From assembly GCF_004010195.1 (NCBI RefSeq), contig NC_057730.1, positions 15,798,227 to 15,862,226 of the forward strand: a stretch of DNA of 64,000 nt. Reading direction: 5' to 3'. This DNA is from Chiloscyllium plagiosum (taxonomy: Eukaryota). Positions within the stretch are counted from its first letter, which is position 1. Each line of letters begins with the position of its first letter. The notes beneath the pieces were generated by a model that saw nothing but the letters and a program-made list of their open reading frames with translations, had not been told where the DNA came from and did no database searches. The translations under genes were made by a program, and so were the position numbers. Below, one piece after another: positions 4,354-56,511 of this stretch.

Positions 4354-4563
4354 ATTAAAAATCACACATCACCAGTTATAATCCAACACATTTATTTGGA
4401 AGCACTAGCTTTTGGAGCACTGCTCCTTCATCAGATTTATAACCACCTGACGAAGGAACAGCATTCCGAAAGCTAGTGCTTCCAAATAAATGTGTTGGAC
4501 TATAACCTGGTGTTGTGATTTTTAAACTTTGTACAGCCCAGTCCAACACCTGCACCTTCAAAT
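4354..4563 (+). mobile_element. Short palindromic hammerhead-bearing non-autonomous element, family 1
   Basis: Inverted arms about 4355-4434 and 4447-4524; CAC CTGACGA..GAAAG CTA GTG; 13-bp TSD CTTGAAGAATTTC (4341-4353, 4564-4576). Confidence 0.85.
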
Positions 4564-4919
4564 CTTGAAGAATTTCTGCAGTGCATCTCGTAGGTAGTGC
4601 CATACTGCTGCCACTAAATATCAGTGGTTAAGGTGGCAAAATACATCAAGATAAGATTAGAACTGAGACAATATGCATTTCTGGAATGGCTGAACAGGCC
4701 GAGACTTTTTTCTTTCTGTCGACAAGAGAATGCAGTGGAATGACCTGATTGAAGTTCTGTCAGTTTTCTGAAGGTTGTAATAGATTTCACTCATCTGACA
4801 GAAGCTTATTTTTCAGTATTTGCCAAGACTGGAATCTCTGAATCAGCAGATCTTTTGCTGTCAAACAGTAGTACTTCCATTTTATTGGTTTGAGTAAACT
4901 TGCACTTTCTGTTTTGCAG

Positions 4920-5059
4920 CAAGGTTGATCAGGAAATTATAAAAATTCTTCAGGAGCGTCTGAGGGCCTGTCAGCAGAGGGAAGGGCACAGCTATGTACA
5001 GAATTGTGCTAAGGAGCTCGAACAATTCAAGCAGGGAGCAAAAGGCTACCAATCAAGAT
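4920..5059 (+). CDS. NDUFB10: NDUFB10 coding exon 3
   Basis: ttttgcag acceptor, gtaagt donor; 140 nt; [46 protein letters not shown]. Confidence 0.95.
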
Positions 5060-5164
5060 GTAAGTCATATTTGAAGACTAATAATTTGTGTAATGTTATG
5101 ATCAGTTTAGTGTGTAGTAAAGAAAATTGAACTGCATCTTATCTAACAACTCCTTTTAAGCATT

Positions 5165-5440
5165 TGTTAAGCACTCTTGCATCAGAATCTGAATGTTCTG
5201 GCTTCCAGCTCAAATTGTGCACAATAATCACGTCTGACACATCAGTGCAATATTGAGGGAGTGTTGCACATTCAGAAATTCTATCTTCAAGGTAAGTTAT
5301 AAAATTGAGCCCCGTCTTCCTCCTCCATCCAAATAAATGCATCATTTACTGCTCAAATTACATCACAAAAACATTATCCGAGTACTGCATGTGGAACCTG
5401 TTGTGCAAGCTAGCTGCTATGTATCCTTTGTGAGGTAGAT
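5165..5440 (+). mobile_element. Old SINE, probably SacSINE1/Deu-domain type, in NDUFB10 intron 3
   Basis: AGCACTCTTGCATCAGAATC head and CTGACAC..CAGTGCAATATTGAGGGAGTGTTGCAC core resemble the recalled consensus; highly diverged. Confidence 0.5.
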
Positions 5441-5577
5441 AAATGTTGTATTTCTTAATAAGGACATCTTTCGATGAACAAAAACATGGGATGCGGTTGT
5501 GTTTGCATAAAATCACATTGAGGTGGATGAACCTTGCTGTTGATTTGCAGTCTAATTTACTACTTTTCTTTTTGCAG

Positions 5578-5675
5578 ATGGTGACTTGGGAGCTTATGCT
5601 AGTGGCAGAAAGTGTCTAATGAAACAGAAACATCGAATGATTGAGGAGAGGGAGCAGGCAGCATCTGAAGCATGA
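5578..5675 (+). CDS. NDUFB10: NDUFB10 last coding exon
   Basis: Polypyrimidine tract plus tttgcag acceptor; (Y)GDLGAYASGRKCLMKQKHRMIEEREQAASEA then TGA at 5673-5675. Confidence 0.93.
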
Positions 5676-6001
5676 ACAGGTCCCACCAGAAAGTGATGTT
5701 CTTTCAAAATTACTTTTATGACAAACTGTCATCTATAATGTATAGTCTGAATGTGTTCAAATTGTTAAATGCTATATTTCACATGAATGTGACTCCAGCA
5801 TACGGAACCTTATAAAATAACATGCCATAACTTATAATCTGTTTTGTCCTTTCTTGTGCTTGCTGGATAAAACAAGATTCTTACAACATTGTTAATTAAA
5901 AACCTTTGAGAGAAAGTGAGGGCTGCAGAGGCTGGAGATCAGAGCTGAAAATGTGTTGCTGGAAAAGCGCAGTAGGTCAGGCAGCATCCAAGGAACAGGA
6001 G

Positions 6002-6037
6002 AATCGACGTTTCGGGCATAAGCCCTTCTTCAGGAAT
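6002..6037 (-). ncRNA. Minimal type I hammerhead ribozyme motif in the Penelope terminal repeat
   Basis: ATTC CTGAAGA A GGGC-TTAT-GCCC GAAAC GTC GATT: intact core, GUC triplet, palindromic ACGT stem III. Confidence 0.8.
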
Positions 6038-8733
6038 GAGGAAAGTGTGTCCAGCAGGCTAAGATAAAAGGTAGGGAGGAGGGACTTGGGGGAGGTGCTT
6101 TGGAAATGCAATAGGTGGAGGGAGGTCAAGGTGAGGGTGATAGGCCGGAGTGGGGTGGGGGCGGAGAGGTCAGGAAGATGATTGCAGGTTAGGAAGGCGG
6201 TGCTGAGTTCGAGGGATTTGACTGAGACAAGGTGGGGGTAGGGGAAATGAGGAAACTGGAGAAATCTGAGTCATCCCTTGTGGTTGGAGGGTTCTCAGGC
6301 AGAAGATGAGGCGCTCTTCCTCCAACCGTCGTGTTGCCATGGTCTGGCGATGGAGGAGTCCAAGGGCCTGCATGTCCTTGGTGGAGGGGGAGTTAAAGTG
6401 TTGGGCTTACGGGTGGTTGGGTTGGTTGGTCCGGGTGTCCCAGAGGTGTTCTCTGAAACGTTCCGCAAGTAGTCGGCCTGTCTCCCCAATATAGAGAGGT
6501 CACATCGGGTGCAGCGGATGGAATAGATGATGTGTGTGGAGGTGCAGGTGAATTTGTGGCGGATATGGAAGTGTCCCTTGGGGCCTTGGAGGGAAGTAAG
6601 GGGGGAGGTGTGGGCGCAAGTTTTGCATTTCTTGCGGTTGCAGGGGAAGGTGCCGGGAGTGGAGGTTGGGTTAATGGGGGGTGTGGACCTGACGAGGGAG
6701 TCACGGAGGGAGTGGTCTTTTCGGAACGCTGATAGGGGAGGGAGGGAAATATATCACTGGTGGTGGGGTCCGTTTGGAGGTGGCGGAAATGGTGGCAGAT
6801 GATACGTTGTACATGGAGGTTGGTGGGGTGGTAGGTGAGGACCAGTAGGGTTCTGTCTTGGTGGCAGTTGGAGGGGCGGGGCTCAAGGGCGGAGGAGCGG
6901 GAAGTGAAAGAGATGCGGTGGAGGGCATCGTCGACTACATCTGGCAGGAAATTGCGGTCCTTGAAGAAGGCCATCTGGGTTGTACGGTTTTGGAACTGGT
7001 CCTCCTGGGAGCAGATGTGGCGGAGACAAAGGAATTGGGAATATGGGATGGCGTTTTTACAGGGGGCAGGGTGGGAGGAAGTGTAGTCTAGGTAGCTGTG
7101 GGAGTCGGTCGGTTTATAGTAGATGTCCATGTTGATTCGGTCACCCGAGATAGAAATGGAAATGTCTAGGAAAGGGAGGGAGGAGTCTGAGACGGTCCAG
7201 GTGAATTTGAGGTCAGGGTGGATGGTGTTGGTAAATTGGATGAACTGTTCAACCTCCTCATGGGAGCACGAGGCAGCGCCGATACAGTCATCGATGTAGC
7301 GGTGGAAAAGGTGGGGGGTGGTGTCAGTGTAGCTGCGGAAGATGGACTGTTCCACATATCCTACGAAGAGGCAGGCATAGCTGGGGCCCATGCTAGTGCC
7401 CATGGCTACTCCTTTGGTTTGGAGGAAGTGGGAGGATTGGAAAGAGAAGTTGTTCAGGGAGAGGACCAGTTCAGTCAATCGAAGGAGAGTGTCAGTAGAA
7501 GGGTACTGGTTGGTACGGCAGGAAAGGAAGAAGTGGAGGGCTTTAAGTCCTTGGTGATGGGGGATGGAGGTGTACAGGGATTGGATGTCCATGGTGAAGA
7601 TAAGGCGTTGGGGACCGGGGAAGCGAAAATCATGGAGGAGGTGGAGGGCATGGGTGGTGCCCCGAACGTAGGTGGGGAGTTCTTGGACTAAGGGGGACAG
7701 GACCGTGTCGNNNNNNNNNNNNNNNNNNNNNNNNNNTGGATGGTCTGGGAGATGATGGTTTGGTGGTGGGAGGTGGGGTCATGGTCAAGGTGGCAGTAGG
7801 AGGTGGTGTCCGCGAGCTGGCGTTTAGCCTCAGCGGTGTAAAGGTCGGTGCGCCAAACTACAAGGGAGGCACGGTAGTAGTTTGGCGCCCCTCCAACCGC
7901 CACCAGGACAGAACCCCACTGGTCCTCACCTACCACCCCACCAACCTCCATGTACAACGTATCATCCACCATCATTTCCACCATCTCCAAACTGACCCCA
8001 CCACCAGTGATATATTTCCTTCCCCTCCCCTATCAGCATTCCCAAAAGACCACTCCCTCCGTAACTCCCTCGTCAGGAGATCACTCCCTCCGTGACTCCC
8101 TTGTCAGATCCACACCCCCCATCAATCCAACCTCCACTCCCGGCACCTTCCCCTGCAACCGTAAGAAATGCAAAACGTGCGCCCACACCTCCCCCCTTAC
8201 TTCCCTCCAAGGGACATTTCCATATCCGCCTCAAATTCACCTGCACTTCCACACATCATCTATTCCATCCACTGCACCCGATGTGGCCTCCTCTATATTG
8301 GGGAGACAGGCCGCCTACTTGCGGAACGTTTCAGAGAACACCTCTGGGACACCTGGACCAACCACCCCGTAGCCCAACACTTTAACTCCCCCTACCACTC
8401 CACCAAGGACATGCATGTACTTGGACTCCTCCATCGCCAGACCATGGCAACACAACGGTTGGAGGAAGACCGCCTCATCTTCTGCCTGGGAACCCTCCAA
8501 CCACAAAGGATGAACTCAGACTTCTCCAGTTTCCTCACTTCCCCTCCCCCCACCTTGTCTCAGTCAAATCCCTCGAACTCAGCACCGCCTTCCTAACTGC
8601 AATCATCTTCCTGACCTCTCTGCCCCCACCCCACTCCGGCCTATCACCCTTACCTTGACCTCTCCCCACCTATCGCATTTCCAAAGCCCCTCCCCCCTAC
8701 CTTTTATCTTAGCCTGCTGGACACAATTTCCTT

Positions 8734-8769
8734 ATTCCTGAAGAAGGGCTTATGGCCGAAACGTCGATT
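8734..8769 (+). ncRNA. Minimal type I hammerhead ribozyme motif in the inverted Penelope terminal repeat
   Basis: ATTC CTGAAGA AGGGCTTATGGCC GAAAC GTC GATT; core intact, one stem II substitution. Confidence 0.75.
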
Positions 8770-9791
8770 CTCCTGTTCCTTGGATGCTGCCTGACCTGCT
8801 GCGCTTTTCCAGCAACACATTTTCAGCTAATTAAAAACCTTGCTGACTTGGTCTGAAGATGTGGTCAACTGGTCTCTGAAATGGCTCAGCAAGCCATTTC
8901 AAAAGCAATGAGGGTCGGAATCAAAAGTAGTCCTTTTCAGTAAGAATGAAGAAAACACCAAGGGGAAACAAGATACCACACCACATCAAATGCTGGAGTT
9001 CATGACAATAATACTTGTCATATTCAACAAAAAACATCAGTCTGTCATAGTTGGGTAAGCTTTTCTGTAGAGCTATCCAATTAGTTCCACACTCTTGTCC
9101 TTCAGATTGTACTTTACAGAATTGAACTGTTGCCTCCACCTTTTCACACAGTGCAAAACTAGTGTTGCTGCCAGTTCTTTTGCTAATTGCCTTAAATCTA
9201 CAGTCAGAATCCCAAGTGTAGTTAGGTGACATTTGGCCCCTCAAGTCTGCACTGACCGACCGAACAGTACCTCTGCTGCCCCCATCCTCATAACACTGCA
9301 TTTACCTTGACTACTCCAGCTGGCCTGCACATTACATGGAAATTCAACATAGCTTGGCCAGTGCAATGCATTCTGCCTTCAAAGCTGTATTCAAGTGCCA
9401 AGTGAGAGATATCTGAATGGGTACATGAAGAGGAAAGGTTGGGAGGGATATGGGCCAGAAGCAGGCAGGTGGGACAAGTTTGTTTTGGGATTATGTTCAG
9501 CATGGACCGGTTGGACCAAAGGGTCCATTTCCATGCGCTATGATTCTATAATAGTTCTCTTAATACTAACTCAAGGGCAACACTACCGAGCAACCAGTTT
9601 AGAAAAGCAACAAAAATACAAGTGGCTGAAAAAACTCAGCACGTCTGGCAGCATCTGTGCAGAGAAATCAGAGTTAACATTCCAGGTCTAGTGATCCTTC
9701 CTCTGAGAAAGGGTCACTGGATCCAAATATAGCCCCTCACCAGCATCCCATCCCAACCCAAAACAATAAACACAAGATTATGCAACAGATT

Positions 9792-9797
9792 TTTATT
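9792..9797 (-). terminator. RPS2 polyadenylation signal AATAAA
   Basis: tttatt on the + strand, 20 nt past the RPS2 stop codon. Confidence 0.85.
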
Positions 9798-9817
9798 TCA
9801 TTCTTTGCATAAATGCT

Positions 9818-11759: not shown

Positions 11760-11900
<141 letters not shown>

Positions 11901-11925: not shown

Positions 11926-12058
11926 ACCTGTTGAGCTTCAAATGGAACAGGTAAACTACGCAGAAGGTCTACCTGCCGTGCAGTGCTCCATTTTTCTCTC
12001 TCTCTCTTAATTTGCCAAATACACCACCATCAGGTTAATTGAGCAGAGCTGAGAGAAT
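11926..12058 (-). ncRNA. SNORA10: H/ACA snoRNA of the SNORA10/SNORA64 family (SNORA10/ACA10 orthologue) in RPS2 intron 6
   Basis: Minus strand TTCTCTCAGCTCTG...AGAGAA (H box)...TGCACGGCAGG...CCTGTTCC...ACAggt; about 133 nt; ends 70 nt upstream of the 3' splice site; 3' pocket TGCACG/TCC is complementary to 18S rRNA GGA-U-G-CGUGCA; same host gene as in human. Confidence 0.85.
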
Positions 12059-13332: not shown

Positions 13333-13467
13333 CTCCTTATCTTCAGCCTTTCCACCACGAGCACCACGACCCCTGCCACGTCCCCGCCCACGGCCTCGGC
13401 CCCGCCCACGGCCACCAGAGCCGAAGCCACCGCGGAAGCCTCCTCTACCACCGGCGTCGTCCGCCAT
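13333..13467 (-). CDS. RPS2: RPS2 exon 2 coding part (start codon, RG/RGG-rich N-terminus); the exon begins at 13470
   Basis: tcgtag|CAA ATG; [45 protein letters not shown]; gtaaga donor. Confidence 0.97.
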
Positions 13468-14598: not shown

Positions 14599-14747
14599 GC
14601 GTTTCGGGTAAAAGCCCAGCATCGGGGACATTCCTGATGAAGAGCTTTTGCCCAAAACTTCAATTTTCCTGCTCCTTGGATGCTGCCTGACCTGCTGTGC
14701 CACACCCTTGACTGATTTCCAGCACCTACAGCCCTCACTTTCACCTA
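14599..14747 (+). mobile_element. Family 3 Penelope terminal-repeat derivative in RPS2 intron 1
   Basis: CTGATGAAGAGCTTTTGCCCAAAAC preceded by a short inverted TTTCGGGTAAAAGCCC; 14-bp TSD GTTAAATTTTAGTC (14585-14598, 14748-14761). Confidence 0.75.
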
Positions 14748-16600: not shown

Positions 16601-19170
16601 CGCGGCATAGGAAGAGTGTGTGACCATGTGAGGTATGTGTTTAAATTGTAATATTAAATTATAATTGTGAAACTAGCTCTTAAATGGCCTGGCACGATAA
16701 TCCACTTCAACTGGAAGATTTAAAAGTTTGTTTTTGGGGTTTATAAATCTGAACCTTAAATTATTTTGATTCTAATATTTTTGCCTTTATTTAAAATCAC
16801 AAACTACAGTTTCAGTTTTAAAATTGCTCGGTTGCCTCCACGTTAAAGTGTTCGAGATCATAATCTTTAACTGGAAAATGCAGAACCTGTAAAATATTGA
16901 GATCAGGTGTTAAAACTAAAAAAAATTAGGTTTCTAATATGTGTGACGTATAAAGTTAATGTAATTACCAGCTAGAGTTTTGTATTAATTTACTTTTGGA
17001 ATTGCTGTCACTGGTATTTATAGGTTACTAATAACCTGGTTCAGCAGTTGGGAACACGTGTTGTATACTGGATGGGTATAGTGACTGGCACACTGAAAAT
17101 TACCTATGGCACTGCCAATTACCATGGGTAAGATTAGTGTGCCTACATTAAATGGTACACTAAAGCTTATTGCCTACTTTTGTTGTTTGTGGTCAATAAA
17201 ACCCGTGTGCCAATAAATTTTAATTGAACCTTTTAAAAGGTGTAGTTGTTTGCAATGTCCACTTTCAAAAATGACTATTTGCAGGCAGTATTCTAGACTG
17301 TGTACTGTGATTTTAATCTTACGCTTGGTTATAGGTGTTGTGCAGTCCAGAGAATTAAATATGGCATCAGATGGGTGACCAGACTTGAAAAGCACACACT
17401 GAAGACAAGAATGAAAAGTCACGGTAGTATGTACTATCCCAACTACACAAAGCTGATCAAGCCTCCATCAGCTGCACCTTTCAAACCTATGATCTCCATA
17501 TAAACTTGAGATAACTAGAAGGTTTTTTCTCCTAATCACACTGAAGGAACAATTCCAAATTAGACACTTTCTGGAATTTGAAATATTAACTTCTTTACTA
17601 GCATAATGGGTATTACCTGCAGCTGCTGTAGTTAAATTCAGAATAGGCAATGTAAGAGTATTCTGTGAAATGAAAGAGTTCCTCTGTTTATGTTTAATCG
17701 AATAGGCAGTAGTTCATGAGCTACTGAAATGCAAGTCCCAAATAAGTCAAAACCGTAGGATAACTGTTAGTTTATTGGAATAGAAACCACAAGATGTAGG
17801 AGCAGAAGTAGGCCAGTCATTCAGCCTGTCCAGTCATCTCTGAAAAGTAGATCTCATGGCTGATCAGATAACCCTCAACTCCATTTTGCCTTCCCCAATT
17901 TAAAAACCTGTCTGGTCTATAGAGTCCTCTAACACACTTAATGACCAAACCTGGACCACTCTCAGGCGTAAAGAATTCTGAAGATTCACCACCCTCAAGA
18001 AATCCTTATGCCATAAAATGGCCATCTACTCTCCCACAAGAGAGAGAATCGCTTTTCTGCATCTACATGGCCAAGTGACCCAAGAATTTTGTTTCTCTGG
18101 AGTACAGGTCCAAATATATTCAGCATCTCAAGACTGTCCCACCACATCCTGGATCAGCCTTCTGGAACCTTCCCTGCACTAGTGCCAATAGCAGGTTCGT
18201 TCTTTAGCCAAGGGGACCAAAACTTCACAGTATTCAAGACATTGTCACAGTATTTTGTTTTAGATTGACCTCCATCTTCCATTTCCTTCCTCAATAGCTG
18301 AAGTTGTACACTAGCTTTTGAGAATTTTTACATGGTTTCTGCAGTTTAATATTCAGTACCTCATTTTCCCATAGTTTACTTCATCTGCCAAGTTTTTGCT
18401 GACTCTGAGCCAGTCTATATCCCCCCCTGCAGGTTGTCATCCTTACCACTTGTCTTCCCACCTATATTTGGGTCATCTCCAAACTTAGCTACACTACATT
18501 CCCTATCAGTGTCAGTGTCAAAGTCAATAAAATTTATAGTGAACAAACTGATCATTTCAGCTTGGTTGCAGGCATATCATTTGACTAGATTTTTATAAAT
18601 GAACTCCTGTTTCATGAACAATGTTTAACAAATATTGAACATTTAGATAAATTAAATGCTGATTCTTTATTTCAAAGTCTACAGACATAGAAAAGTCAAA
18701 TAACTTGGTGCTGCAAATTTAAAAAGTATAAAGTTGAATAACAATTACACTGTGCTAATAGGACAGTAGAATCAGGTAGACAGCTTAAGACTCAGTTACT
18801 GACCCCCAAAAAGCAACTTTGCCATTGGCTAGAATTACTTTTATTTCCTCCCCATTATTTTAAAAATTTCAATTCAATTTTTTAAATTCATCAAAAGTTC
18901 TACTGCCCTTTTAACTGAGTGACAGGATATAAAATATTACAAGATTTTAGGTAAAAAAGTTAAATCTAGTGGTAAAAGCACACCAACAGGAAATTGATGC
19001 TGCTTCAGCTTTCTCTTTCAGGTTTCCTTTTATTAGCTATTGGGACCTCAACTCCAGTTGGAGTGATAAATGAAATTTGAGTACTGTTACACCTTTTTCA
19101 CATGTGTTTTGGACTTGTATCATGCATTTCATGAAATGCAAAAGAAATAAAACTATTAAAAACAGGATTG
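16595..19170 (+). ncRNA. SNHG9: SNHG9-like non-coding snoRNA host gene (exon 1 about 16595-16632; later exons tentative: acceptors at 17284 or 17334, terminal exon about 19022-19170)
   Basis: TATA + TCT initiator + AG|gtatgt donor at 16632/16633; intronic SNORA78; syntenic position head-to-head with RPS2; ttctctttcag acceptor at 19021 and AATAAA at 19146-19151. Internal exon structure is uncertain. Confidence 0.65.
17086..17218 (+). ncRNA. SNORA78: H/ACA snoRNA SNORA78 (ACA64) orthologue
   Basis: Hairpin 1 GGCACAC..TTACCTATGG/CCATGGGTAA..GTGTGCC, H box ACATTA (17145-17150), hairpin 2 TGGTACAC..TTATTG/CAATAA..GTGTGCCA, terminal AUA box (17213-17215); pocket CTGAAAAT/AGATT pairs with conserved 28S GAUCU-U-G-AUUUUCAG with 14 nt spacing to the H box. 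Confidence 0.88.
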
Positions 19171-22454: not shown

Positions 22455-22754
22455 CTGATTAAAGATACAAATTTAATAGGCTAAAGCTGTACTTCAGAAG
22501 ATTCATTCAATAAATGTAGGCACTTTATAACAGTCTTATAACTTCCATATATAGTCTGTTAATTTGCAGGTGCTTAGGTACAAATTAATTGAATTTGCAA
22601 AAACGCCACCATCCATTTGCTGAATTAGAATTGCCAACATAAATGGGTCCCAATTAACAATATCTGAAAATTAATTCAAATCCTTATCACCAAGGTGTGG
22701 CTAAGCCTCTGTGATTAGGGTCCCTTGGAGTGTTGGTTGAACAGTTGGAGGTGA

Positions 22755-22932
22755 TTTGGCGATGCTAGTGTTGGACTGGGGTGTACAAAGTTTTTTTAAA
22801 AAAAAATCACACCACTAGGTTATAGTCCAACAGGTTTATGTGGAAGCACTAGCTTTTGGAGTGCTGCTCCTTTCAGGTGGTAACCACCTCATGAAAGAGC
22901 AGTACTCCGAAAGCTAGTGCTTCCAAATAAAC
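22755..22932 (-). mobile_element. Family 1 palindromic hammerhead element, degenerate
   Basis: Same arms (GGAAGCACTAGCTTT/GAAAGCTAGTGCTTCC) and tail GTGTTGGACTGGGGTGTACAAAG; both cores mutated. Confidence 0.8.
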
Positions 22933-25900
22933 TAGTCTGAGGTGTTTAAGGTCACAGCGAGCCAGAAATACAAAATTATCCATACTCTTGTGAAACAACA
23001 CATCACCAAAAACAGGAGTATCTGGGAGGAATGAAATGGAGGGAAACATTTTACATGAACACGGTGTTCAAGTTCCAAAAACGTGCATTTCAATAGCTTC
23101 CTTAACACAAATGTTCTTGCTGTTTTGGTGCAATTTTTTTAAGTGATTATTTATTTTAAATAATTCAAACAAATGTACAAATAAGAACAGACTGGAGTAA
23201 TGCTTCCCCTCTCTCCAATAAGTGGAGGAGAAATGAAATGATGAACAAGTTTGCCATCTGAAAGTCTGCTCAAGGGCAATGTCAGTTTACTCAAAGTAAT
23301 AAAGTACGAACAATAGTTTTGAACATTTCAAAGTTAAAGAGACCAGCCTAGTTGCCTTGAACAGATGGCCCTCTGAAAACAACCTCGAAAGCCAGTTAAG
23401 AGCGACCCATGTTTCTGTGGATCTGGAGTCACATGCAGGCCAGACCAGCTAAGGATAGCTTCCCAAAAAGGAATTTTTGAAACAAATGGATTTTACAAGC
23501 AAGGTTCTGAGGAAGATCAGTTCAGAAGCAGAAGGCTATGGGGTGTCAGCAAGTAAGGCAACCTGCAAAGACAGCTGACGACGTGAGCTTAGGGAACACA
23601 AGGCAAATAGCCTGCTTCAGTTCTGTGGAGATTCAATGTTAAGTAATAATGAACTGAACAAGCAGATTGCTTTAAGGATGCTAGGAAGAAACATTAACTG
23701 AAGAAAACAACAAAGTGAAGGTACAACAATTTGCCAGAAGGAAACTGATACAGCCATGGCAGCTTAGCAAGAACCTAAATAAGATCAGGTTCACTGAGGT
23801 TCAAGCATCTAGGGGTTTTTCTGATATTTGTAATGAGATTATTTTCATAGTTCTTGCCCAGTAGAATATAGTTTGTCTCCTTTATCATTTTTATGTTCCT
23901 TTGTTAAAAGTATATTAGCAGCTTCTTGTGCTTATGTTCGGAGACTGACTGTTAAACAAAAAATTCAATAAAATGTATGGTCCATCAGGCCAGATTTCAT
24001 TCAGGAATCTGATTTGAGCAGTATTACCACCAACTGGGATCATAACACGGATTGCAGCGATACAAAACAGCGACTCAACCTTTCTGGTCATGGGCAGTTA
24101 GGGGTATCAATAAATGCTGACCTAGCCACAAGTGTCCCAAGGACAAAATGTAAGACTGCGTAGAGGTCTGGGAATACCATATTTGAGGAAAGATATATTT
24201 TGCCTTGGAGGTGGTACAGTTCAAAAACATCATAAAGGTTAATTCCTGGGATTGAGAGTGTTGTCCTATGACAATAGGGCTATCCTCTTTGATATTTAGA
24301 AAGTTGAAAAGTGACCTCATTCAAATATACAAGATTCTGAAAGGTCTTAAAAGGACAGACAAATAAGTAGTTTCCCAGATGTTGGGGGATTTGGAACATT
24401 GGGATACATCCTCAGGATAAGGGACTGATCATTTATGACTAAGATAGGAAAACAATGGAGTTGAGCAGAAGGACTTGGGCATATACAAGTACATATCATG
24501 CAAGATGGCAGGAGTGGTTCAGAGATGATGAGTGGTTATTAAAGTACAGTACACAATAACTTGATTTTAATAATTGGGGAAGAGTGTACATTAGCATGGA
24601 TAATATGTTATACATAACACTCGTTCAGCACCTGGTGTAATGTGCCGAGTTCTGAGAGCAATATTTAAAAGAAAAGTAGTGAACATCAGTAACGCAGATA
24701 GATTGGAGAAATTGGGACTGCTTTCTTTGAAGAAACGGTTGAAAGGAGATTTGATAGAGGTATTCAACATCACAAGGAGGTCTGACAGAGTAAATAGAGA
24801 AAATTTCTTTCCTAAATGATGGAAAGATCGCATACCAAAAAAGGCACAAAATTAAGATATGACTGGCCAAAGAAGCAGAGACACAAGGAGAAACTTCTCC
24901 TTAGTGACTGGTTAGGATCTTGAATGCACTGCCACAGTGTGGTGTTTGAAGATTTAACAGAGCCGATCAAGGAGGAATTGGTTTGTTACATGAAACAGGG
25001 AGAAAAATAAATGCAGGATTACAGGGAGGCGGCACTATGTGAATAGCTCCCCTAGGGAGCTGACAGGCCAAAACAGTACAAAATGCCAATATATTTAAAA
25101 GGCCTTGGACCTTTGAAATGCTCTACCACAGGTGGATTACGGAGGCTCAATGACAGTGTCTATTTGAGGTTAAAATGGACAATTAATAGTCAGAATTGAG
25201 GCAGAAGTTCATTCCTGATTTACGTTGACTGGCTTGAAGAGGACCACAATATCTATTGCTGTGCCTAGTTTTTAAATCTATTGAGTTTCAAGAGCAGTCT
25301 TCAGACTCCCACATATTGTATATAAACATGATTTCTCAGCATCAAGATTCATTAAATAATCAGATAGACATGGAACAGAAATCACATAGCAAGCAACAGC
25401 ACTTGGCACACATTCAACACATGATCAGTGGCAATTAACAGAGCACATTTTTGACACAGTTGGAATTTGATAAAACTTGCTGAAATTCAGAACTATTAGT
25501 GGTAAAGACCAACAAATCACTTGAAGGCTTACTTTCCAATACTGTAGTAATAGAAATAGGTAACGAATGGAAGCCTGGATAATGTTCATTTTAAGCACAA
25601 CCATTCTTTAAAAAAAATTACTCACTACCTAAAATTGGAACTTTACAGATTTTTTTCCTCCCCAGATTTAACTAAGGATTGTCGTAGCACCCAATGTATT
25701 TTTGGTAACCACCCATCCAAATTTCTTATTTCCCACCATACCAGATGACATGCAATCTGTGAAACATAGTTGAGCAATCAGAAAGGTAAAAGGTTGGTGG
25801 GACTTATAGAGTCAGAGTCATGGAGATGTAGAGCATGGAAACAGACCTTTCAGTCCAACCTGTCCATGCCGCCTAGATATCCCAACCGGCCCATATCCCT

Positions 25901-27579: not shown

Positions 27580-27794
27580 AGCAGGTTTTGAGAAGATTTG
27601 TAGCTCGGGTTGAGGTTCTGGATGTAAGTTTGCTCGCTGAGCTGGAAGGTTAGTTTTCAGACATTTCATCACCATACTCTATCATCAGTGAGCTTCCAGT
27701 GAAGTCTTCACCAGAGGCTCTCTGATGAAGTTACTGAGTGTGGTGATGAAACATCTGAAAATGAACTTTCCAGCTCAGCAAACAAACTTACATC
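27580..27794 (-). mobile_element. Short palindromic hammerhead-bearing element, family 2
   Basis: Arms GATGTAAGTTTGCTCGCTGAGCTGGAAGG / TTCCAGCTCAGCAAACAAACTTACATC; CTGATGA (27722-27728)..GAAAC ATC; 12-bp TSD ATGA(G/A)CTGGATT (27568-27579, 27795-27806). Confidence 0.8.
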
Positions 27795-29751: not shown

Positions 29752-29842
29752 GTGAAGGAGCCGGTGTTGGACTGGGGTGGACAAGTTAAAAATCACACAA
29801 CTCTAAACCTGCTGGACTATAAACTGGTGTTGAGAGATTTTT
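29752..29842 (-). mobile_element. Family 1 element with its palindrome centre deleted
   Basis: Tail and outer arm ends retained, hammerhead-bearing centre absent; 12-bp TSD AATCTTTT(T/C)GGT at 29740-29751 and 29843-29854. Confidence 0.75.
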
Positions 29843-29954
29843 AATCTTTTCGGTAACTTACTCAAAAAAAAATTCAAATCAAGTTTGACATACACGATTT
29901 TCCTCACACTAATGTTTGTGAGACAGCGCAAAACAGACTGATATACTCAATCAG

Positions 29955-31507: not shown

Positions 31508-32195
31508 GCCTCCAATCATCAGGCACCTCATCCATAGTTGGAGATTATTCAGTCTCAAAAAGAAACCAGGACAAAATAACCTCAAAAATTACAGCATCGG
31601 TATGCTCCTTGCTTGAAGGCTACACGGCCCATTTCCATTATCACCAACTAACCAATCATATCCCTTGTAGGGCCACAGACTCTGCAATTCTCCAAAATTG
31701 AAATTAAAAACTGCCAATTCATCAGTTTTTTTGTGGCAGCAACCTGACCTCAGCCAACATAGTCTATTGAGGACATACTTTACCCGAAAAAAAAACACAG
31801 GATTTAAAGCAGCCTTCGTGGTCACAACATCCAAGTCACTTCTCAGGACCCAAGAGTTTGGGAAACCCACTTGGAGGTTGTGCAATTCAGTTTTGGGGAT
31901 TTCAGAGCAGGTGGTGAAAATTGTCATGCCGTCATTGTTAGTTTCTCATTAAAAGCTAGATTTTATATCTTTAGCATTAGAATCTATGAATATATTTTTC
32001 CATCAGATCTCTTAGTGCGGTAAAAACAGAACCATTGCTTGGAGAACTATTTTGGTGTCATCTCTCACTCTCTGCAAGACACTGCCACTAGGTTCACGCA
32101 ACTGTTAGTCAGATTTTAATTTCCTGCGTACAACGCAGTCATCACTGCTATCCCACAACTTTACACAAGGGATAAATTTTATGCAGATTACCCAC

Positions 32196-32586
32196 CATCA
32201 TCTTCACAGACGAGATGCTCTGAAAACTGGGAATGATCAGGAGGCGCCAAATTCTGCAGATTTCTTTCCACTAGCTTTAGGCGACATTGCATTCTATACA
32301 AACGGCTTTTGAGAACCCGTATCTTCTCCTTATATTTTCTCTTTGAGTCCCTGTAACAGTTGTGTTCAAGCAGCTGATTTGGGGTAAGTTGGGCTCCACA
32401 TCCCATTCTGCATGGTTGGCTCCAATGTTCGCAAACCTGTTCATGAGCTGCAAGGTTCTTCTGAAATACTTCAGTTGTACAGGCCTCATGTTTGCATTTC
32501 ACTATTCTAAAGTCACAGGCAGCTTTATGGTTTGCAGATTGTTCAAGTGGAAAGGTCTCCCAGCAGCCATAGACATAGTTTTCACA
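32196..32586 (-). CDS. RNF151: RNF151-like exon 4: TRAF/SIAH-type zinc fingers and coiled coil
   Basis: aatgcag acceptor; CENYVYGC...HKAACDFRIVKCKHEAC...HEQVC...CRMGCGAQL...HNCYR matches the RNF151 pattern; G|gtgggt donor (an in-frame TAA at 32188-32190 is reached if it is not spliced). Confidence 0.88.
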
Positions 32587-33077
32587 CTGCATTACAGAAA
32601 CAAATAGCTGTTGTCATTCAACAGGAGGACAGCTTCACTTGATTTTAAGAAACACATAATAACTTGATCAAACATAGACCTGGATTGTTCACATATTAAA
32701 ACAGAGTAAACGGAAATAAACGTAGCAGTGTTGAATAATGTCTGAAATAATGACAACATATTAATTGGAATCAAAAACATAAAGCAAAGACCAGGCAACG
32801 TATGGAGTGTGGAAAAATCAGATCCTTCACCAGAACCAGGAAATGCAATACGTTAAAGTAGGTAAAATGTGGAAGGTGGGAAAAGAGAGAAAGGTTTGAG
32901 ATAGTGTGAAAGGCAGGAGACATTGGGCCTTCCACCACTTCTAACATTTTCAAAAAAGGGTGTGGGATTAAGACAATGAACAAACAAAAAAAATGTCCAA
33001 AGGGAGGACGATTGGCAGACTGTTGTTCTTGGATGGAAAAGCAAAGAGGAAATAGAACAGGGGAAGTAGAGATTCCC

Positions 33078-34852: not shown

Positions 34853-35045
34853 AGATATAGGTTTGCTCGCTGAGCTGGAAGGTTCGTTTTCATATGTTTT
34901 GGCACCCTACTAGGTAACATTTCAGTGAGCCTCCGGATGCAGCACTGGTGATGTAGCCCACTTTCTATTTACATATTTGGGTTTCCTTAGGTTGATGATA
35001 TCATTTCCTGTGGTGACGTTATTTCCTCCTCTTCTTTTCCTGGGA
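34853..35045 (-). mobile_element. Family 2 single arm / Penelope terminal-repeat fragment
   Basis: GTTTGCTCGCTGAGCTGGAAGGTT shared with the copies at 27.6 kb and 43.3 kb. Confidence 0.65.
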
Positions 35046-41149: not shown

Positions 41150-42640
41150 CGTTTGTGAAAATGAAAGTTAATGTTTCAGGTCCAATGACCCTTCTGCAGA
41201 ACAGCTAGGAAAATATGTATGTCGATTTTGCTGCTCCTCGGGTGCTGCCTGAACCGCTGTGCACTTCCAGCACCACTAATCCAAAATCTGGTTTCCAGCA
41301 TCTGCAGTCATTGTTTTTACCTAGGAAAATGTGTCAGTTTATGCGCAGAAGATAGGGGACAGGGAGGAAATGATAGGTGGGGAGAGAAGAAGAGTTGGAC
41401 AAAGGAGTGGTTAATGATGTGGCTGGGAGGATGAATAGCTGTTGATGGAGACTGTTAGCTGCTAACAAAAGGTAGTGTGTAATGGCAGACAATATAATCG
41501 CAAGGCCTGGTATGAGAGGTAGGGGGCTAGGACATGGGGTAGCTCAGGCCCGAAGATGATTGAACACGAGAAAGTCTGGAGGGCTGCAGGGTTCCCAAGC
41601 GGAAAGTGAGGTGTTGTTCTTTCAGCTTGCACGGAGCTTCACTGGAGCACTGCAGCAAGCCCAAGACCAGATGTTGGCCAGGGAACAGGGAGGGGTGTTA
41701 AAGTGGCAGGCAACTGGAAGCTCAGGGTCTTTTTTGCAGGCAGGATGTAGATGTTCTGCAAAGCGGTCACCCAGAATACGCTTCATTTTCCCAAATGTAG
41801 ATGAGACCGCACTGTGAATAGCGAATGCAGTAGACTAGGTTCTGTGAAATGCAGGTAAAGCGTTGCTTCACCTGGAAGGTGTGTTTGGACCCTTGGATAC
41901 TGAGGAGGGAGGAGGTAAATGAGCAGGTGAAGGTGCTGTTTGGGAGCACAGGGTGGGGAAGATGGTAGGAGAGAGAGGGTGTTGGAAGTAAAAAAAAACA
42001 AAAGAGTGGACCAGCATGTTCCTGACGGAGTGGTCCCTGCTGAAGGCACATAAGAGAAGGGAGGGGGGAGTAGGTGTCCGGTGGTGGCATCTCACTGGAG
42101 GTGGCAGCTGATGATCTTCTGGATGCTGGTGGGATGATAGGTGAGGACAAGGGGAACCCTATCGCTGTTGCGGGAGGAGAGAGAGGGGTGAGGGTGGAAG
42201 TGCGGAAGACCGGCTGGACCTAATTGAGGGCCCTGTCAACTATATAGTGCTGGGGAATCCTCAGTTGAGGAAGAAGGTGGATATTTAAGAGGCTTCCTTG
42301 GTGAGGTTGGTATCAGAACAAATACAACAGAGATGGAGGAACTGGGAGAATAGAATGGAGTCTTTACAGGAAACAGGGTGTGATGATGAAAAGTGCAGAT
42401 AGATGTGGGATGCGGTGAGTTTATCGCAGATGAATGAGCATTTATCCCCAGAAATTGAAACAGATGTTGATGAAGGGAAGGGAGGAGTTGGAGATAGACC
42501 AGGCAAAAGTGCGGCTCGGGTAGAAATTGGAAAATCAAGAAATCTTTCCAATTTCGGACAGGACGGGGAAGCACTACCTATGATATCATCGATATTTCGG
42601 AAAAGGATTCATGGGTGGGGGCCAGAATAGGACTGGAACC
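41150..42640 (-). mobile_element. Degenerate Penelope-like element with a nested terminal-repeat fragment (about 41220-41320)
   Basis: Minus-strand GIY-YIG remnant VKQRFTCISQNLVYCIRYSQCGLIYI; similarity to the 6.1-7.2 kb element; CTAGGAAAAT(A/G)TGT duplicated around the nested insert. Confidence 0.8.
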
Positions 42641-43289: not shown

Positions 43290-43480
43290 GAGTTTGGAGA
43301 AGATTTGTATCTCAGGTTGATGTAAGTTTGCTCGCTGAGCTGCAAAGTTCATTTTCAGGTGTTTTGTCACCATACTAGGTATCATCTGGAGCTTCACTGA
43401 AGGCTCACTGATGTTGGTGACTATGGTGACAAAGCATTTGAAAGTGAACCTTCCAGCTCTGAGTAAACTTTCATCCACAT
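43290..43480 (-). mobile_element. Family 2 palindromic element, degenerate
   Basis: Same tail GAGAAGATTTGTA and arms as 27580-27794. Confidence 0.75.
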
Positions 43481-43714: not shown

Positions 43715-44177
43715 ATCACCTCACCACCCAACATTTCAACTCCCCCTCCCACTCTGCCGAGGGCATAGAGGTCCTGGGTCTCCTTCACCGCCGCTCCCTC
43801 GCCACCAGACGCCTGCAGGAAGTACGCCTGATTTTCCACCTCGGAACACTTCAACCCCAGGGCATCAATGTGGCCTTCAACAGTTTCCTCATTTCCCCTT
43901 CCGCCACCTCACCTCCAAACTTCCAGCTCAGCACTGTCCCCATGACTTGTCCTACCTGCCTATCTCTTTTTCCACCTATCCACCTTCATCTCCTCCCCCA
44001 CTCACCTATTGTACTCTATGCTACTCTCTCCCCACCCCTACCCTCCTCCAGCTTATCTCTCCACGCTTCAGGCTCTCTGCCTTCCTGATGAAGGGCTTTT
44101 GCCCAAAACATCGATTTTGCTGCTCCTCAGATGCTGCCTGAACTGCTGTGCATTGCCAGCACCACTAATCCAGAATC
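43715..44177 (+). mobile_element. Penelope-like 3' fragment with terminal repeat
   Basis: QHFNSPSHS..VLGLLH..RRLQEVRLIFHLGTLQPQGIN; decayed hammerhead CTGATGAAGGGCTTTTGCCCAAAACATC at about 44085. Confidence 0.85.
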
Positions 44178-51208: not shown

Positions 51209-51240
51209 ATGGCGAGCCCCGCTGTACACTTCAAAACAAA
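51209..51240 (+). CDS. TBL3: Transducin beta-like 3 (UTP13, WD40 SSU processome component), exon 1 coding part
   Basis: GCC ATG G Kozak context; MASPAVHFKT(N); gtgagt donor. Confidence 0.9.
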
Positions 51241-53147
51241 GTGAGTGTGAGGCATCTCCCTCCAACAACATCCACACCATCCCCTCANNNNNNNNNNNNN
51301 NNNNNNNNNNNNNNNNNNNNNNNNNNNNNNNNNNNNNNNNNNNNNNNNNNNNNNNNNNNNNNNNNNNNNNNNNNNNNNNNNNNNNNNNNNNNNNNNNNNN
51401 NNNNNNNNNNNNNNNNNNNNNNNNNNNNNNNNNNNNNNNNNNNNNNNNNNNNNNNNNNNNNNNNNNNNNNNNNNNNNNNNNNNNNNNNNNNNNNNNNNNN
51501 NNNNNNNNNNNNNNNNNNNNNNNNNNNNNNNNNNNNNNNNNNNNNNNNNNNNNNNNNNNNNNNNNNNNNNNNNNNNNNNNNNNNNNNNNNNNNNNNNNNN
51601 NNNNNNNNNNNNNNNNNNNNNNNNNNNNNNNNNNNNNNNNNNNNNNNNNNNNNNNNNNNNNNNNNNNNNNNNNNNNNNNNNNNNNNNNNNNNNNNNNNNN
51701 NNNNNNNNNNNNNNNNNNNNNNNNNNNNNNNNNNNNNNNNNNNNNNNNNNNNNNNNNNNNNNNNNNNNNNNNNNNNNNNNNNNNNNNCCTGATGTTAAAA
51801 CAGGACATTGGAATGTATTCCTTAATTATCTTTTCAATTGAGGAGGGAAAAAAATCATTCAAACGTTTTCATCATGTGATTGTAATTTATTGCTAGATTA
51901 AATAATTTTATCTGGATTATAACAAGTGATACCTTTTGAACAATCAGGCTATCCAGTAAACAGTGATGAGTAAATTTGAGATACAGCCATTTTTGCTGAA
52001 ATAATCTAGAGGACTAGAAACAGTGTACCTCGTATTTTGGATCAAAACTATGAGCCAGAGTTCTTGCATCAAACAAGATTTGGTGAGTTATGTGGTGTGG
52101 TTATGCAACAGATGCCTTTTTAGTTACATGGTTCATGACAGTCGTTTCAGGTGCATCTGCAGCTGTTAATGTGGAAAGATGTTGCCTTGCACTCTTGAGA
52201 GTGATGGTCTAAATGATTTGTCACTGTGGGGTGAAGTGGAGGGAGGCTTCTGTATAATGGCCACATGGTTTCTTCTGAGACTACACTGTTTACAAAGATA
52301 GAAAATGGGAAGGAAGGCACAGAAGATAATAGACCATCTCCTTACATCTGTAAATTATAACTATGGTGATGTGAATGCAGTATGGATATTCTCAAGTAGC
52401 ATACCAGGTGGCTTCCAATGGCCCAGTATGGTGGTATGGGCCTGGGCCTAGCAGGACAGTCTGCCAGTGTGGCAGTCTTGTCCAGGAAAGGCAGTCTTGG
52501 TATGGGGTGGTGTTCTTGTCCTAGCATGGAGGTCTTCAGCGGTGGCTTTTGGGTTTTCCAGAAGTCCTGTGTCAAGGTCTAGTCCCAGCATGGAGGTTTT
52601 GGCCTGATTTTCCAGTGTACCCTAAACCCAGGAGTTACTATTTAAACTGTGATAAATTTTTACTTTTTTTTATGACTTCTGTCATAAATTTAGATGCTGT
52701 GTTATGGCGACTTACAACTTGTCATTGTATTTCTTTTGTAAAAATGCATGTGACAATAAATTGCTGATCTATCCTGTTTCTGCATGGAATGTCCATATAG
52801 ATTTCCTTGCAGAGTTTATACATATATTATTACATAGCCAGGCACAATGTAAAGTATAGCATAGATGTCTAGGATAATTCAATATTCAAGAGATTGTGGG
52901 TGAAACTTGGATACTCACCCAACTTTTAAAAAATTGTGGATAATGGGCTGGATTTTAATCATTCAGACTTTCTTACTGTAGAGGAGGGTAACAAGGTATC
53001 AACAACTTAAAACATTACTGTTTAACACAAGTGGAAATCCATTTGGGGCACGGGGAGTAAATTGTAAATGCCTCTTCACTGTGGATCTCACTAAGAGCTC
53101 TGATTTTAAGCCTGAGGAATACTGTTGTCATGGGCTTTCTGGAACCT

Positions 53148-53550
53148 TGGCGTGGAGGACTGGGTTGGACAAACCTAAACATCGCACAACACCAGGTTAT
53201 AGTCTAACGGGTTTATTTGGAAGTACTAGCTTTCAGAGCTCTGCTCCTTCATCGGTAACTAGTGAGGCAGGATCATAAGACACAGAATTTATAGCAAAAG
53301 ATCACAGCATTATGCAATTAAAACAATATATTGAACAAACCTAGATTGTCTTTCATCTTTTAGAATGGGTTGCAGGTTTTGGTTCATTAATATGTAAATT
53401 CCCAAGCTTCTTTTAAGTCACATTCTCGAGATAATTTAAGGTTTTATGGTCCTGCCCCACTAGGTACCTGATGAAGGAGCAGTGCTCCGAAAGCTAGTGC
53501 TTCCAAATAAACCTGATGGACTATAACCTGGTGTTGTGTGATTGTTAACC
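53148..53550 (-). mobile_element. Family 1 palindromic hammerhead element with a spacer of about 200 bp
   Basis: 11-bp TSD TTCTGGAACCT (53137-53147, 53551-53561); intact + strand core GTAC CTGATGA AGGAGCAGTGCTCC GAAAG CTA GTGC at 53464-53500. Confidence 0.85.
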
Positions 53551-53749
53551 TTCTGGAACCTGTCACATTAAACAAGGAAGACTTATGTTGGCAGAACTTG
53601 TTCTGGCAAGACTTTGGTTTGCAATTTGTTTCAAAATGCATATCATTTATTTGCATTTTCTGAGATTTGACGGTCAAGGAAGGAGGTGAGGGAAGACAGG
53701 TCTGCAGTGACCTGACCATCCTTGACAATGTTCCCCCACTTGGCTGTCT

Positions 53750-54882
53750 CACAGGAAGGTCATTTTCCAGAAGGTTACATCCATAAAGTCAGGAAGTATA
53801 GGATACAGGGAGATTTGGCTATCTGGATTCAGAATTGGTTGGCCGACAGAAGGCAGAGATTGGTTGTAGATGGTAAGTATTCTGCCAGGAGGTCAGTGTT
53901 GAGTGGGGTCCCGCAGGGCTCTGTTCTTGGGGCACTGCTCTTTGTAGTTTTATAAATGACTTGGATGAGGAGGTTGAGGGGTGGGTTAGTAAATTTGCAG
54001 ATGACACAAAGGTTGGAGGTGCCGTTGATAGTATCGAGGTCTACTGCAGGCTGCAGCGCGACATGGACAGGATGCAGAGCTGGGCTGAGAAGTGACAGAT
54101 GGAGTTCAACCTGGATAAATGTGAAGTGATGCATTTTGGAAGGTCGAACTTGAATGCTGAATATAGGATTAAAGACAGTGTGGAGGAACAGAGGGATCTG
54201 GGTGTGCAAATACATAGATCCCTCAAAGTTGCCACCCAGATGGATAGAGTTGTTAAGAAAGCATACGATGTTTTGGCTTTCATTAACAGGGGGATTGAGT
54301 TTAAGAGCCATGAGGTTTTGCTACAGCTCTACAATTCCCTGGTGAGACCGCACTCGGAATATTGTGTCCAGTTCTGGACGCCCTACTATAGGAAAGATAC
54401 AGAGGCTTTGGAGAGGGTGCAAAGAAGGTTTACCAGGATGCTGCCTGGACTGGAGGGCTTGCCTTATGAAGAAAGGTTGAATAAGCTTGGACTTTTCTCT
54501 CTGGAGAGAAGGAGGAAGAGAGGAGACCTGATCGAGGCATACAAAATAATGAGAGGAATAGATAGAGTCATTAGCCAGAGACTTTTCCCTAGGGCAGGAC
54601 TGACTGGTACGAGGAGTCATTGTTTTAAGATATTAGGGGAAGGGTATAGAGGAGATGTCAGAGGGTGGTTCATTACGCAGAGTTGTGAATGTGTGGAATG
54701 CGTTGCCAGCTGTGGTGGTGGAAGCAGAGTCATTAGGAACATTTAAGTGACTGCTGGACATGCACATGGACAGCAGTGAATTGAGGGGAGCGCAGGTTAA
54801 GTTATTTTATTTTACATTAGGATTAATCCTCGGCACAACATCGTGGGCTAAAGGGCCTGTTCTGTGCTGTACTTTTCTATGT
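53750..54882 (+). mobile_element. CR1 RT C-terminal fragment in TBL3 intron 1
   Basis: SGVPQGSVLG, SKFADDTK, MEFNLDKCEVMHFG, RRKRGDLIEAYK. Confidence 0.92.
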
Positions 54883-56241
54883 GTCAGCAACTGTTTGCAC
54901 TCCTGATGAGTTGACTGGGAAGCTAATCCTCTGCCTGCATATCCTAGCTTCTGGGCGGATCGCTGCCTGGGAGCTGACACAGTCTTGAGGAGCAGCAGCA
55001 GCACATGATGGATGAGGGCGAGCCTGCTACTACTACTGCTGCTGCTCCTGCTGCTGGAGGCCTTGCTGGTCCCTTCGTTCCTGGTTAGAACTGGAGAGAC
55101 GGCTCCCAGATTGCGGTGAAAGTTGACAAAAGGGAAGTACTGATTAAAGGCATAAAAGAGACTCCAGGGCGTCAGACCAAACCACTTGAAATGATTTCCG
55201 AAACAAGCTCTTCCCCGAACAAGTTCTGCAAGCAAACGTCTTCCTGATGTAATCTGACAAATTCCCGAAAGCCCGTGACAACAGTACTCTTGTGTTTGAA
55301 AGCAGCGTTCCTAGTTAAAATAGCAGCAGTGCTTTTACAATAGTCAGACTCACCTGGCCCATGGGAAATTCCCCTTGTGTTAAAGATTGAAGAAACATTG
55401 AAGAAGCAAAGGTCAGCTACTTCCTACTCTTTCCTGTCACGCCAGTCATTACTGGTGTTTAAATGGGTTGCCCACTCAGCATGGCCAGTTAGAATTTCCT
55501 GTAACATAGATCTGGTTTTTGAGTCTGCTACACTTGAAACCCTGCCAGTGGAGCTGAACTGTGAAGAGCTTTATCCCTTGTGTCTGGCCCAGTTTACATT
55601 GTTGATTAGCAGTGCAGGCGTGACTGAAAACTAGGAAATGAATAAGGCAAGGCAGTGATGTCTGTGATTGCAGCAACATGCCCTTGCTTCTGCCATCTCC
55701 ATTTACTAATTAAGCCATTTGTTTGGCAGTTTATGGCCTCTGTGTGCATCTAGTTACATGTTTGTTCTCCTGACATATCAGGTTAAGGAAGATCATGTGA
55801 TAATCCATATGATATAATCAGGAATAGAATGTAGGAATTAAGATGTTTTTCTGTTTGATCCTTGAACATATTTTCAATTTTTTTGCAATGTGTCAGGCAA
55901 AAGGATTCTTTTCATGGAATAACTGCCGACGTGCACAAAATATCTGAAGTAAACAGCATTCCTTAATGGTTTGCTGAAATCCTATTGGTCACATAGTACA
56001 ACTGAACACAGTGGAAGAACAGAAGGCTGTGTTTTTATATTGCTGTAGACATTTGTGTTTGTTTTTAAAAATAGAGTGAAAAGCACCTTTTGGAGTTCTG
56101 TATCATAAAATGAGCAAGAAGGAGTGCCCAGATAATTGACCTGAACCTTACAATTACGCCCACAATTTAAATTCCTTGCAAGTACACCACTTTAAGGTTA
56201 AAATTAGTTTGCCTTCCCCTGTTAATAGCATCATAGAATCA

Positions 56242-56511
56242 AAGTTAAAAATCACACAACACCAGGTTATAGTCCAACAGGTTTAATTGGAAGCACACTA
56301 GCTTTCGGAGCGACGCTTCTCCATCAGGTGATTGTGGAGGGCTCGATCGTAACATAGAATTCTGTGTTACGATCGAGCCCTCCACAATCACCTGATGGAG
56401 GAGCGTCACTCCGAAAGCTAGTGTGCTTCCAATTAAACCTGTTGGACTATAACCTGGTGTTGTGTGATTTTTAACTTTGTACACCCCAGTCCAAGACCGG
56501 CATCTCCGAAT
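56242..56511 (+). mobile_element. Family 1 element forming a near-perfect 240-bp palindrome
   Basis: Arms 56240-56359 and 56360-56479 centred on GAATTC with 3 mismatches; 13-bp TSD CATCATAGAATCA (56229-56241, 56512-56524). Confidence 0.9.

Follow-up and report, generated by a model that had tools for sequence, protein, structure and literature searches.

Short fold-back insertions in the Chiloscyllium plagiosum genome as probable truncated and inverted ends of a Penelope-like element

The window analyzed here, 64 kb of contig NC_057730.1 of the shark Chiloscyllium plagiosum, holds five short fold-back copies with hammerhead ribozyme motifs in their arms. We conclude that each copy is very probably a separate dead-on-arrival insertion, truncated and inverted, made by an autonomous shark Penelope-like element (PLE) residing elsewhere in the genome. 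The identity of the copies as truncated inverted Penelope ends is well supported. Given that identity, priming at both ends of the target is slightly the better guess for the route, and fold-back self-priming or later deletion of the centre follows closely behind. An earlier sequence-only reading had taken the copies for a non-autonomous family moving as a short unit. This proposal is not supported: neither the inversion point nor the arm lengths of any copy recur in another, and in the shark protein XP_072410591.1 the arm abuts a reverse transcriptase (RT). Its view that the copies stem from Penelope and are not MITEs (miniature transposable elements with inverted repeats) is borne out by the one-sided tail, the variable target site duplication (TSD) and the same RT link.

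Arms, tails and junctions of the five copies

An nhmmer profile of the arm gave ten significant matches in the window, all of them within the five copies (the next match had an E value of 0.69). No sixth copy was found in the 64-kb window with this profile, and the set of five copies proposed before therefore stands. Positions within an arm are counted from C3 of the hammerhead core, which is set to 0. The copies are composed as follows:

Copy 1, 4354..4563: tail-less antisense arm 4354-4434 (0 to +83) and tailed sense arm 4435-4563 (-12 to +119)
TSD of copy 1, 4341-4353/4564-4576: 13 bp, exact
Copy 2, 22754..22933: antisense arm with tail, 22754-22882 (-6 to +119); sense arm, short, 22883-22933 (-5 to +47)
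Copy 3, 29752..29842: antisense arm with tail (+67 to +117); sense arm without tail (+40 to +80); hammerhead absent
TSD of copy 3, 29740-29751/29843-29854: 12 bp, one mismatch
Copy 4, 53148..53550: antisense arm with part of the tail, 53148-53440 (-186 to +109); sense arm 53441-53550 (-28 to +84)
TSD of copy 4, 53137-53147/53551-53561: 11 bp, exact
Template upstream of the arm, 53290..53440 (-): about 150 nt, in copy 4 only, with stop codons in all three sense frames
Copy 5, 56242..56511: right-hand tail; inner end of both arms at -34, on a common AATT; both cores A9G
TSD of copy 5, 56229-56241/56512-56524: 13 bp, exact

The outer ends of the ten arms lie at +80, +83, +84 and +85 and at +117, +119, +119 and +119, with outliers at +47 and +109; the two clusters (+80 to +85 and +117 to +119), about 35 nt apart, hold eight of the ten arms. 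The inner ends are scattered (0, -12, -6, -5, +67, +40, -186, -28, -34 and -34). We therefore consider the 3′ ends to be fixed at two sites and the 5′ ends to be variable. Five copies show five different inversion junctions, and the arm lengths are copy-specific as well, albeit in a small sample. The five copies do not form a fixed-length family or one unit.

These observations bear on the possibility of a non-autonomous Penelope-dependent family with ribozymes on both strands, whose short hairpins would be transcribed anew and moved again in trans as units. No copy contains an open reading frame (ORF), and there are five copies per 64 kb with no coding parent in the window, as such a family would have it. 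Furthermore, published accounts state that the terminal repeats of PLEs (pLTRs) alone can drive integration in trans (Arkhipova 2013, PMC3846280) and that non-autonomous PLE derivatives exist (Craig 2021, PMC8557442; bioRxiv 10.64898/2026.07.22.740005). However, no junction or arm lengths are common to any two copies, and copy 4 has 150 nt more template. Together with the state of the ribozymes described below, this makes mobilisation in trans as a unit improbable in our judgement.

All arm pairs are head-to-head and none is head-to-tail. Fold-back arms with a one-sided tail had been described for all copies. The tail is indeed present, with about 35 nt in four of the five copies and about 25 nt in copy 4, but copy 4 is no simple palindrome, its left arm measuring 293 nt and its right arm 110 nt. 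Its non-palindromic centre is extra template upstream of the ribozyme, of which about 30 nt are common to copy 5; judging from the stop codons, the upstream template of about 150 nt is probably the 3′ untranslated region of the parent element. The left arm of copy 1 starts at the core itself and lacks stem I's 5′ strand. Neither arm of copy 3 is contained in the other, and the tail-less arm reaches further in than the tailed one. Copies 2 and 5 have symmetric junctions, and the AATT at the junction of copy 5 is present in the template too. Copy 5 is the youngest copy, with arms 97.5% identical, and is of the same subfamily as XP_072410591.1. Arm identity within copies 1, 2 and 4 is 79-88% and between copies 73-89%, so that the arms within a copy are no closer to each other than arms of different copies.

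The TSDs vary in length between 11 and 13 bp in four of the five copies, as had been read before, being exact in copies 1, 4 and 5 and having one mismatch in copy 3; a fixed short TSD, which would have pointed away from Penelope, is not seen. As a background, 3000 pairs of random positions were compared, and one of them had an exact repeat of 11 bp or longer. For copy 2 there is a candidate decayed TSD (22743-22753/22934-22944; 11 bp with two mismatches), which is suggestive and not significant because 39 of 600 random pairs score as well. In most copies the element ends overlap the TSD by 1-4 matching bases (4560-4566, 22750-22756, 56510-56514, 56238-56243 and 29841-29846), a hint of microhomology where priming took place. 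The start of the tail at 56466-56492 (+) resembles a branch point, a pyrimidine tract and an AG acceptor, a resemblance and nothing beyond it. The Drosophila Penelope has an intron in its 5′ untranslated region beside its hammerhead.

A candidate parent among shark proteins

The antisense strand of the copy 5 arm is an open frame, and its translation therefore served as search query. One of five candidates passed, XP_072410591.1 (P0003) from Chiloscyllium punctatum with an E value of 4e-18. This protein is composed, in order, of antisense tail and arm (residues 82-131), a 5′-truncated Penelope RT and a short C-terminus. Residues 95-131 require 2-3 nucleotide changes from the copy 5 arms over 111 nt, against 32 for the next best position, and the copy 5 arm is about 97% compatible with the gene model, as would be expected of DNA from a bamboo shark or a near relative. 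Residues 132-143 correspond to the +1 frame of the RT stretch AIVIQNRTDYCKE, which precedes the in-frame part, with conflicts at 0 of 12 residues; none of 2000 shuffles of an 11-residue version did as well. The last 12 residues (377-388) match best to the copy 5 sense arm across the core, with 4-5 changes per 36 nt versus 7 for the next of 124,930 positions, and the protein thus probably ends in the sense arm. As read from the predicted protein, XP_072410591.1 is a long version of the anatomy of the copies, with a short inverted arm, a 5′-truncated coding copy and a terminal arm.

In a search for relatives of the RT, 44 of 2673 candidate proteins passed an E value of 1e-55. Among them are relatives at 73-92% identity whose records name C. 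punctatum, Scyliorhinus torazame, Heptranchias perlo or Mustelus asterias. P0146 (Heptranchias perlo, from a 54-member cluster) contains DKG and YIDD, a CX4CxxC linker and a GIY-YIG core with two cysteines, and a GIY-YIG with two cysteines between the motifs was also recognized by motif in the relatives P0144, P0147 and P0173; a Pfam scan gave no GIY-YIG score on P0004 or P0005. Since RT, CX2-5CxxC linker and GIY-YIG are present, these proteins would be of the Neptune or Nematis type by the definition of Craig 2021, an assignment by linker motif which leaves both clades, as the linker is common to them. The partner with RT and GIY-YIG that had been predicted is therefore found in part: there is a candidate, and its RT relatives carry GIY-YIG, but XP_072410591.1 itself is without it, the gene model being cut short.

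The earlier statement that the partner is neither of the two coding Penelope families in the window (families A and B below) held up as well. With family A the RT of the candidate parent shares 39% identity and with family B 23%, and both families have an ACGT-type stem III as opposed to AGCT in the copies; we rejected both as partners.

With HMMER the antisense arm peptide had three matches among 1.84 billion representatives. P0121 and P0122 were discarded as chance matches to repetitive proteins, and P0123, an ENA record, contains a related arm and tail without RT. Among 162 proteins the arm peptides were convincing in P0003 and P0123 only. Scans of GTDB with the arm motif and with P0146 returned nothing, as expected of prokaryotic genomes. 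Several shark RefSeq models named ‘uncharacterized’, among them XP_072410591.1, are Penelope fragments, one of them fused to epn2; such gene models are probably annotation artefacts.

The RT link also bears on the possibility that the copies derive from a DNA transposon (a Mutator-like one with a TSD of 9-11 bp, for example) as MITEs or foldback elements. Like such elements they are short, ORF-less, TSD-flanked and have inverted arms. Their ends, however, are asymmetric with a 35-nt tail on one side, the TSD varies between 11 and 13 bp, there is a hammerhead motif in the arm, which adjoins a Penelope RT in XP_072410591.1, and the anatomy recurs in a coding Penelope of the window. There are neither symmetric terminal inverted repeats nor a fixed TSD. 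A DNA transposon is largely refuted by the RT link, and we regard this origin as extremely improbable.

Hammerhead cores and the route of insertion

The hammerhead layout, the AGCT stem III, the CUA triplet and the predicted cut after 4475 had been read correctly. An exact CUGANGA...GAAA core is found in two of eight arms (4447+ and 53468+), and the majority consensus of the arms is intact. These two motifs are:

4444..4478 (+), copy 1: minimal type I hammerhead motif, exact core CUGACGA at 4447 and GAAA-GCUA; one mismatch in stem II; predicted cut after 4475
53465..53499 (+), copy 4: best-preserved hammerhead motif, exact core, 5-bp stem II, stem I up to 6 bp

The other six cores are mutated by G12A, G5C, deletions or, in both arms of copy 5, A9G; in copy 2 both cores are mutated. 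The claim of a core on each arm is thus valid for the layout but not for the state of the cores. The bare motif CTGANGA...GAAA is no evidence alone because it is only mildly enriched in the window (12 matches versus 5.8 expected, with 3 of 100 shuffles reaching 12). Two checks that had been suggested gave no support. An Rfam scan of the whole window at E values up to 5 gave ten matches with no hammerhead family among them; minimal cores such as these would not be expected to fit the Rfam hammerhead models. Stems I and II are paired in 86% of the cells across the arms, but their covariation over eight arms, with two of eight pairs doubly changed (a count reached by 34 of 500 shuffles), is not above that of shuffles, 34-52 of 500 of which do as well.

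In predicted folds of whole-copy RNA, 20-49 kcal/mol are needed to open the core and stem II, and the probability of stem II is about 0 in six of six cases; when isolated arms were folded alone stem II was kept in two of six (copy 1 left and copy 4 right). It had been proposed that the ribozymes work on both strands and cleave as dimers. With six of eight cores mutated and stem II lost in the predicted folds, activity on both strands is not supported, and cleavage as a dimer within one copy is precluded by the placement of the two motifs on opposite strands, which cannot dimerise in cis. The ribozyme on each strand is, on these grounds, best read as a by-product of inverting the pLTR. By the folding model these copies carry the ribozyme along as a passenger; most cores are mutated, and any read-through RNA would hold them locked in the hairpin.

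The mutated cores, the folding cost and the covariation at shuffle level count against re-mobilisation of the hairpins in trans. On the other side stands the core change common to both arms of copy 5, which the sense-arm peptide of XP_072410591.1 does not show. There is a small chance that a subset such as the copy 5 type, with its symmetric junction and a core change of the inactivating type in both arms, undergoes renewed mobilisation, in trans and as a unit. If this were true it would be a head-to-head, ribozyme-dead, non-autonomous Penelope derivative mimicking a MITE and distinct from the tandem retrozymes, and an in vivo demonstration that hammerhead cleavage is dispensable for Penelope mobilisation. 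The A9G change lies at 56320-56330 and 56392-56398. An unmutated core would account for the sense-arm peptide of XP_072410591.1, and the change was either present in the template RNA beforehand or reached both arms by homogenisation.

For separate truncated and inverted insertions, which we favour, the following course would account for the copies. The GIY-YIG domain would cut both target strands 11-14 nt apart, as the TSDs and published in vitro work suggest. Close to the RNA end, reverse transcription would then start at two favoured internal sites some 35 nt from each other, which matches Frangieh 2024, and the tail on one arm and its absence from the other are explained by these two start sites. 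Synthesis stops early at variable points, usually within 10-190 nt. Finally, two short cDNAs, one primed at each target end, would be joined head-to-head, sometimes perhaps at a small palindrome of the template such as the AATT of copy 5. The copies look like MITEs with a hammerhead on each strand because the hammerhead sits inside the terminal repeat of the parent.

Longer inverted Penelope insertions of the same parent might alternatively have lost their centres by hairpin-induced deletion, or the second arm might have been copied by fold-back self-priming. Palindromes at inverted junctions of PLEs have been read as self-priming (Arkhipova 2013, PMC3846280), copies 2 and 5 have symmetric junctions, and the whole centre is absent from copy 3. 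Copy 5, however, is young and yet short already, and because the tail-less arm of copy 3 reaches further in, copying of one of its arms from the other would require a later deletion. That neither arm contains the other fits two independent priming events. We consider deletion or self-priming rather unlikely, though well ahead of mobilisation in trans.

Several points weigh against our interpretation of the copies as independently primed insertions of an element like the candidate parent. The link from arm to RT is a single predicted protein from another assembly, made at the protein level, and its junctions may be spliced. The arm peptides were in none of the other 160 RT proteins compared, the C-terminal match to the sense arm spans only 12 residues, and an RT fragment of the arm's family was not found in the 64-kb window. 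The antisense arm of XP_072410591.1 ends about 7 nt from the copy 5 junction, so a hotspot or a shared intermediate is possible. The symmetric AATT junction of copy 5 and the A9G in both of its arms fit fold-back copying at least as well as two-ended priming. Finally, a sample of five copies is compatible with junctions that recur genome-wide.

The element is ordinary as a kind, inverted 5′-truncated copies, the tail and pairs of hammerheads on opposite strands being published hallmarks of Penelope. An adjacent inverted 5′-truncated copy and a one-sided tail of 30-40 bp are given as typical PLE features (Craig 2021, PMC8557442), and a curation guide repeats them (Goubert 2022, PMC8969392). Dual minimal hammerheads 100-700 bp apart on opposite strands are reported from metazoan PLEs, alongside thousands of scattered hammerhead motifs which are probably connected with truncated PLEs (Cervera 2014, PMC4209133). 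The PLE protein of Anolis, a predicted dimer, cuts both strands of the target, extends them and starts reverse transcription from two adjacent internal sites bracketing the tail; ribozyme cleavage is not needed (Frangieh 2024, PMC11167929). Penelope is listed as present in the whale shark paper PMC8455134.

Like the endonuclease-positive (EN+) PLEs Neptune and Nematis (PMC8557442, PMC3846280), the copies combine 5′ truncation and an adjacent inverted copy with a 30-40 bp tail at one end and a variable TSD; further shared traits are the hammerhead within the pLTR and a parent protein with RT, CX2-5CxxC linker and C-terminal GIY-YIG. In contrast to described EN+ PLEs the copies here are 91-403 bp long and ORF-less, and their TSD is 11-13 bp versus 8-10 bp in the Adineta examples. 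With Poseidon PAc of Anolis carolinensis (PMC11167929) they share two RT start sites bracketing the tail, while both-strand cutting and ribozyme-independent insertion are known for PAc in vitro. Unlike here, PAc belongs to the Penelope/Poseidon clade and its ORF starts inside the hammerhead, whereas the frame from the ATG in the hammerhead core of the copies stops after 8 codons. Stem II is 5 bp here versus 7-8 bp in the minimal hammerheads of Schistosoma, and sharks are not mentioned in the accessible part of that paper (PMC4209133). Non-LTR retrozymes (PMC7229834; bioRxiv 10.64898/2026.07.22.740005) are likewise short, non-coding and PLE-related with a type I hammerhead, but they are head-to-tail tandems with same-strand ribozymes and circular RNA, whereas single head-to-head insertions with mostly broken cores are found here; we rejected this class for the copies, all arm pairs being head-to-head.

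We found no description of this shark family in a literature search that lay outside Repbase, Dfam, supplements and most subscription journals, and the family may already be catalogued. Palindromic Penelope derivatives had been said to be catalogued in other vertebrates; within the same limits no paper confirming this was found.

Whether inverted repeats of Penelope arise by two-ended priming or by self-priming is a question left open by the literature. A dense family with clean TSDs and two sharp start sites is a natural data set for how Penelope makes its inverted repeats and one-sided tail. The A9G in both arms of the youngest copy agrees, as one case, with the in vitro finding of insertion independent of cleavage. 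Such copies are also open to mis-annotation as MITEs or microRNA hairpins; copy 2 and one family-B palindrome gave weak microRNA matches in Rfam.

Other Penelope families and the genomic setting

The two other Penelope families of the window serve as internal controls:

5907..8827: family A coding Penelope, RT and GIY-YIG fragment; tail 5907-5942; inverted truncated copies meet near 7885
5893-5906/8828-8841: TSD of this element, 14 bp
14599..14747: short inverted derivative of family A, ORF-less, about 150 bp; TSD of 14 bp at 14585-14598/14748-14761
61185-62830 (+): family B, decayed Poseidon-like Penelope inserted in a long interspersed nuclear element (LINE); no zinc-finger linker seen
27580-27794, 34854-34936 and 43290-43480: short relatives of the family-B end, the first with a 12-bp TSD (one mismatch)

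The 2.9-kb element and the 150-bp derivative of family A have the same inverted anatomy, one-sided tail included. The end of the family-B element (about 62750-62830) matches the palindromes 27580-27794 and 43290-43480. All three Penelope families in the window leave short fold-back copies, as predicted by a general process of truncation and inversion.

At 14599-14625 the tail-less arm of the short family-A derivative ends approximately at the predicted hammerhead cut site (after GUC), beside the TSD; in this single case priming may have occurred from a ribozyme-cleaved RNA end. More fragments related to family A, of more than one subfamily, lie at 41222-41330, 41767-42219, 43727-44177 and 59160-59223.

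The CpG observed/expected ratio is 0.30 across the window, which is DNA of the vertebrate type. A GC-rich CAG/CTG hairpin at 54986-55051 has weak scores with microRNA models, far under the gathering thresholds. The neighbouring gene features are:

11926-12058 (-), 13350-13460 (-), 17088-17218 (+) and 32188-32613 (-): RPS2-like exon, SNORA64/ACA64 snoRNAs and a TRAF/Sina zinc-finger exon

We take the translation of the exon at about 13350-13460 (-) to be the start of ribosomal protein S2. The snoRNA ACA64 lies near this RPS2-like exon, as does SNORA64, which scores below the Rfam gathering threshold. The arrangement of RPS2, snoRNAs and TRAF/Sina exon presumably matches the RPS2-SNHG9-RNF151 neighbourhood of other vertebrates.

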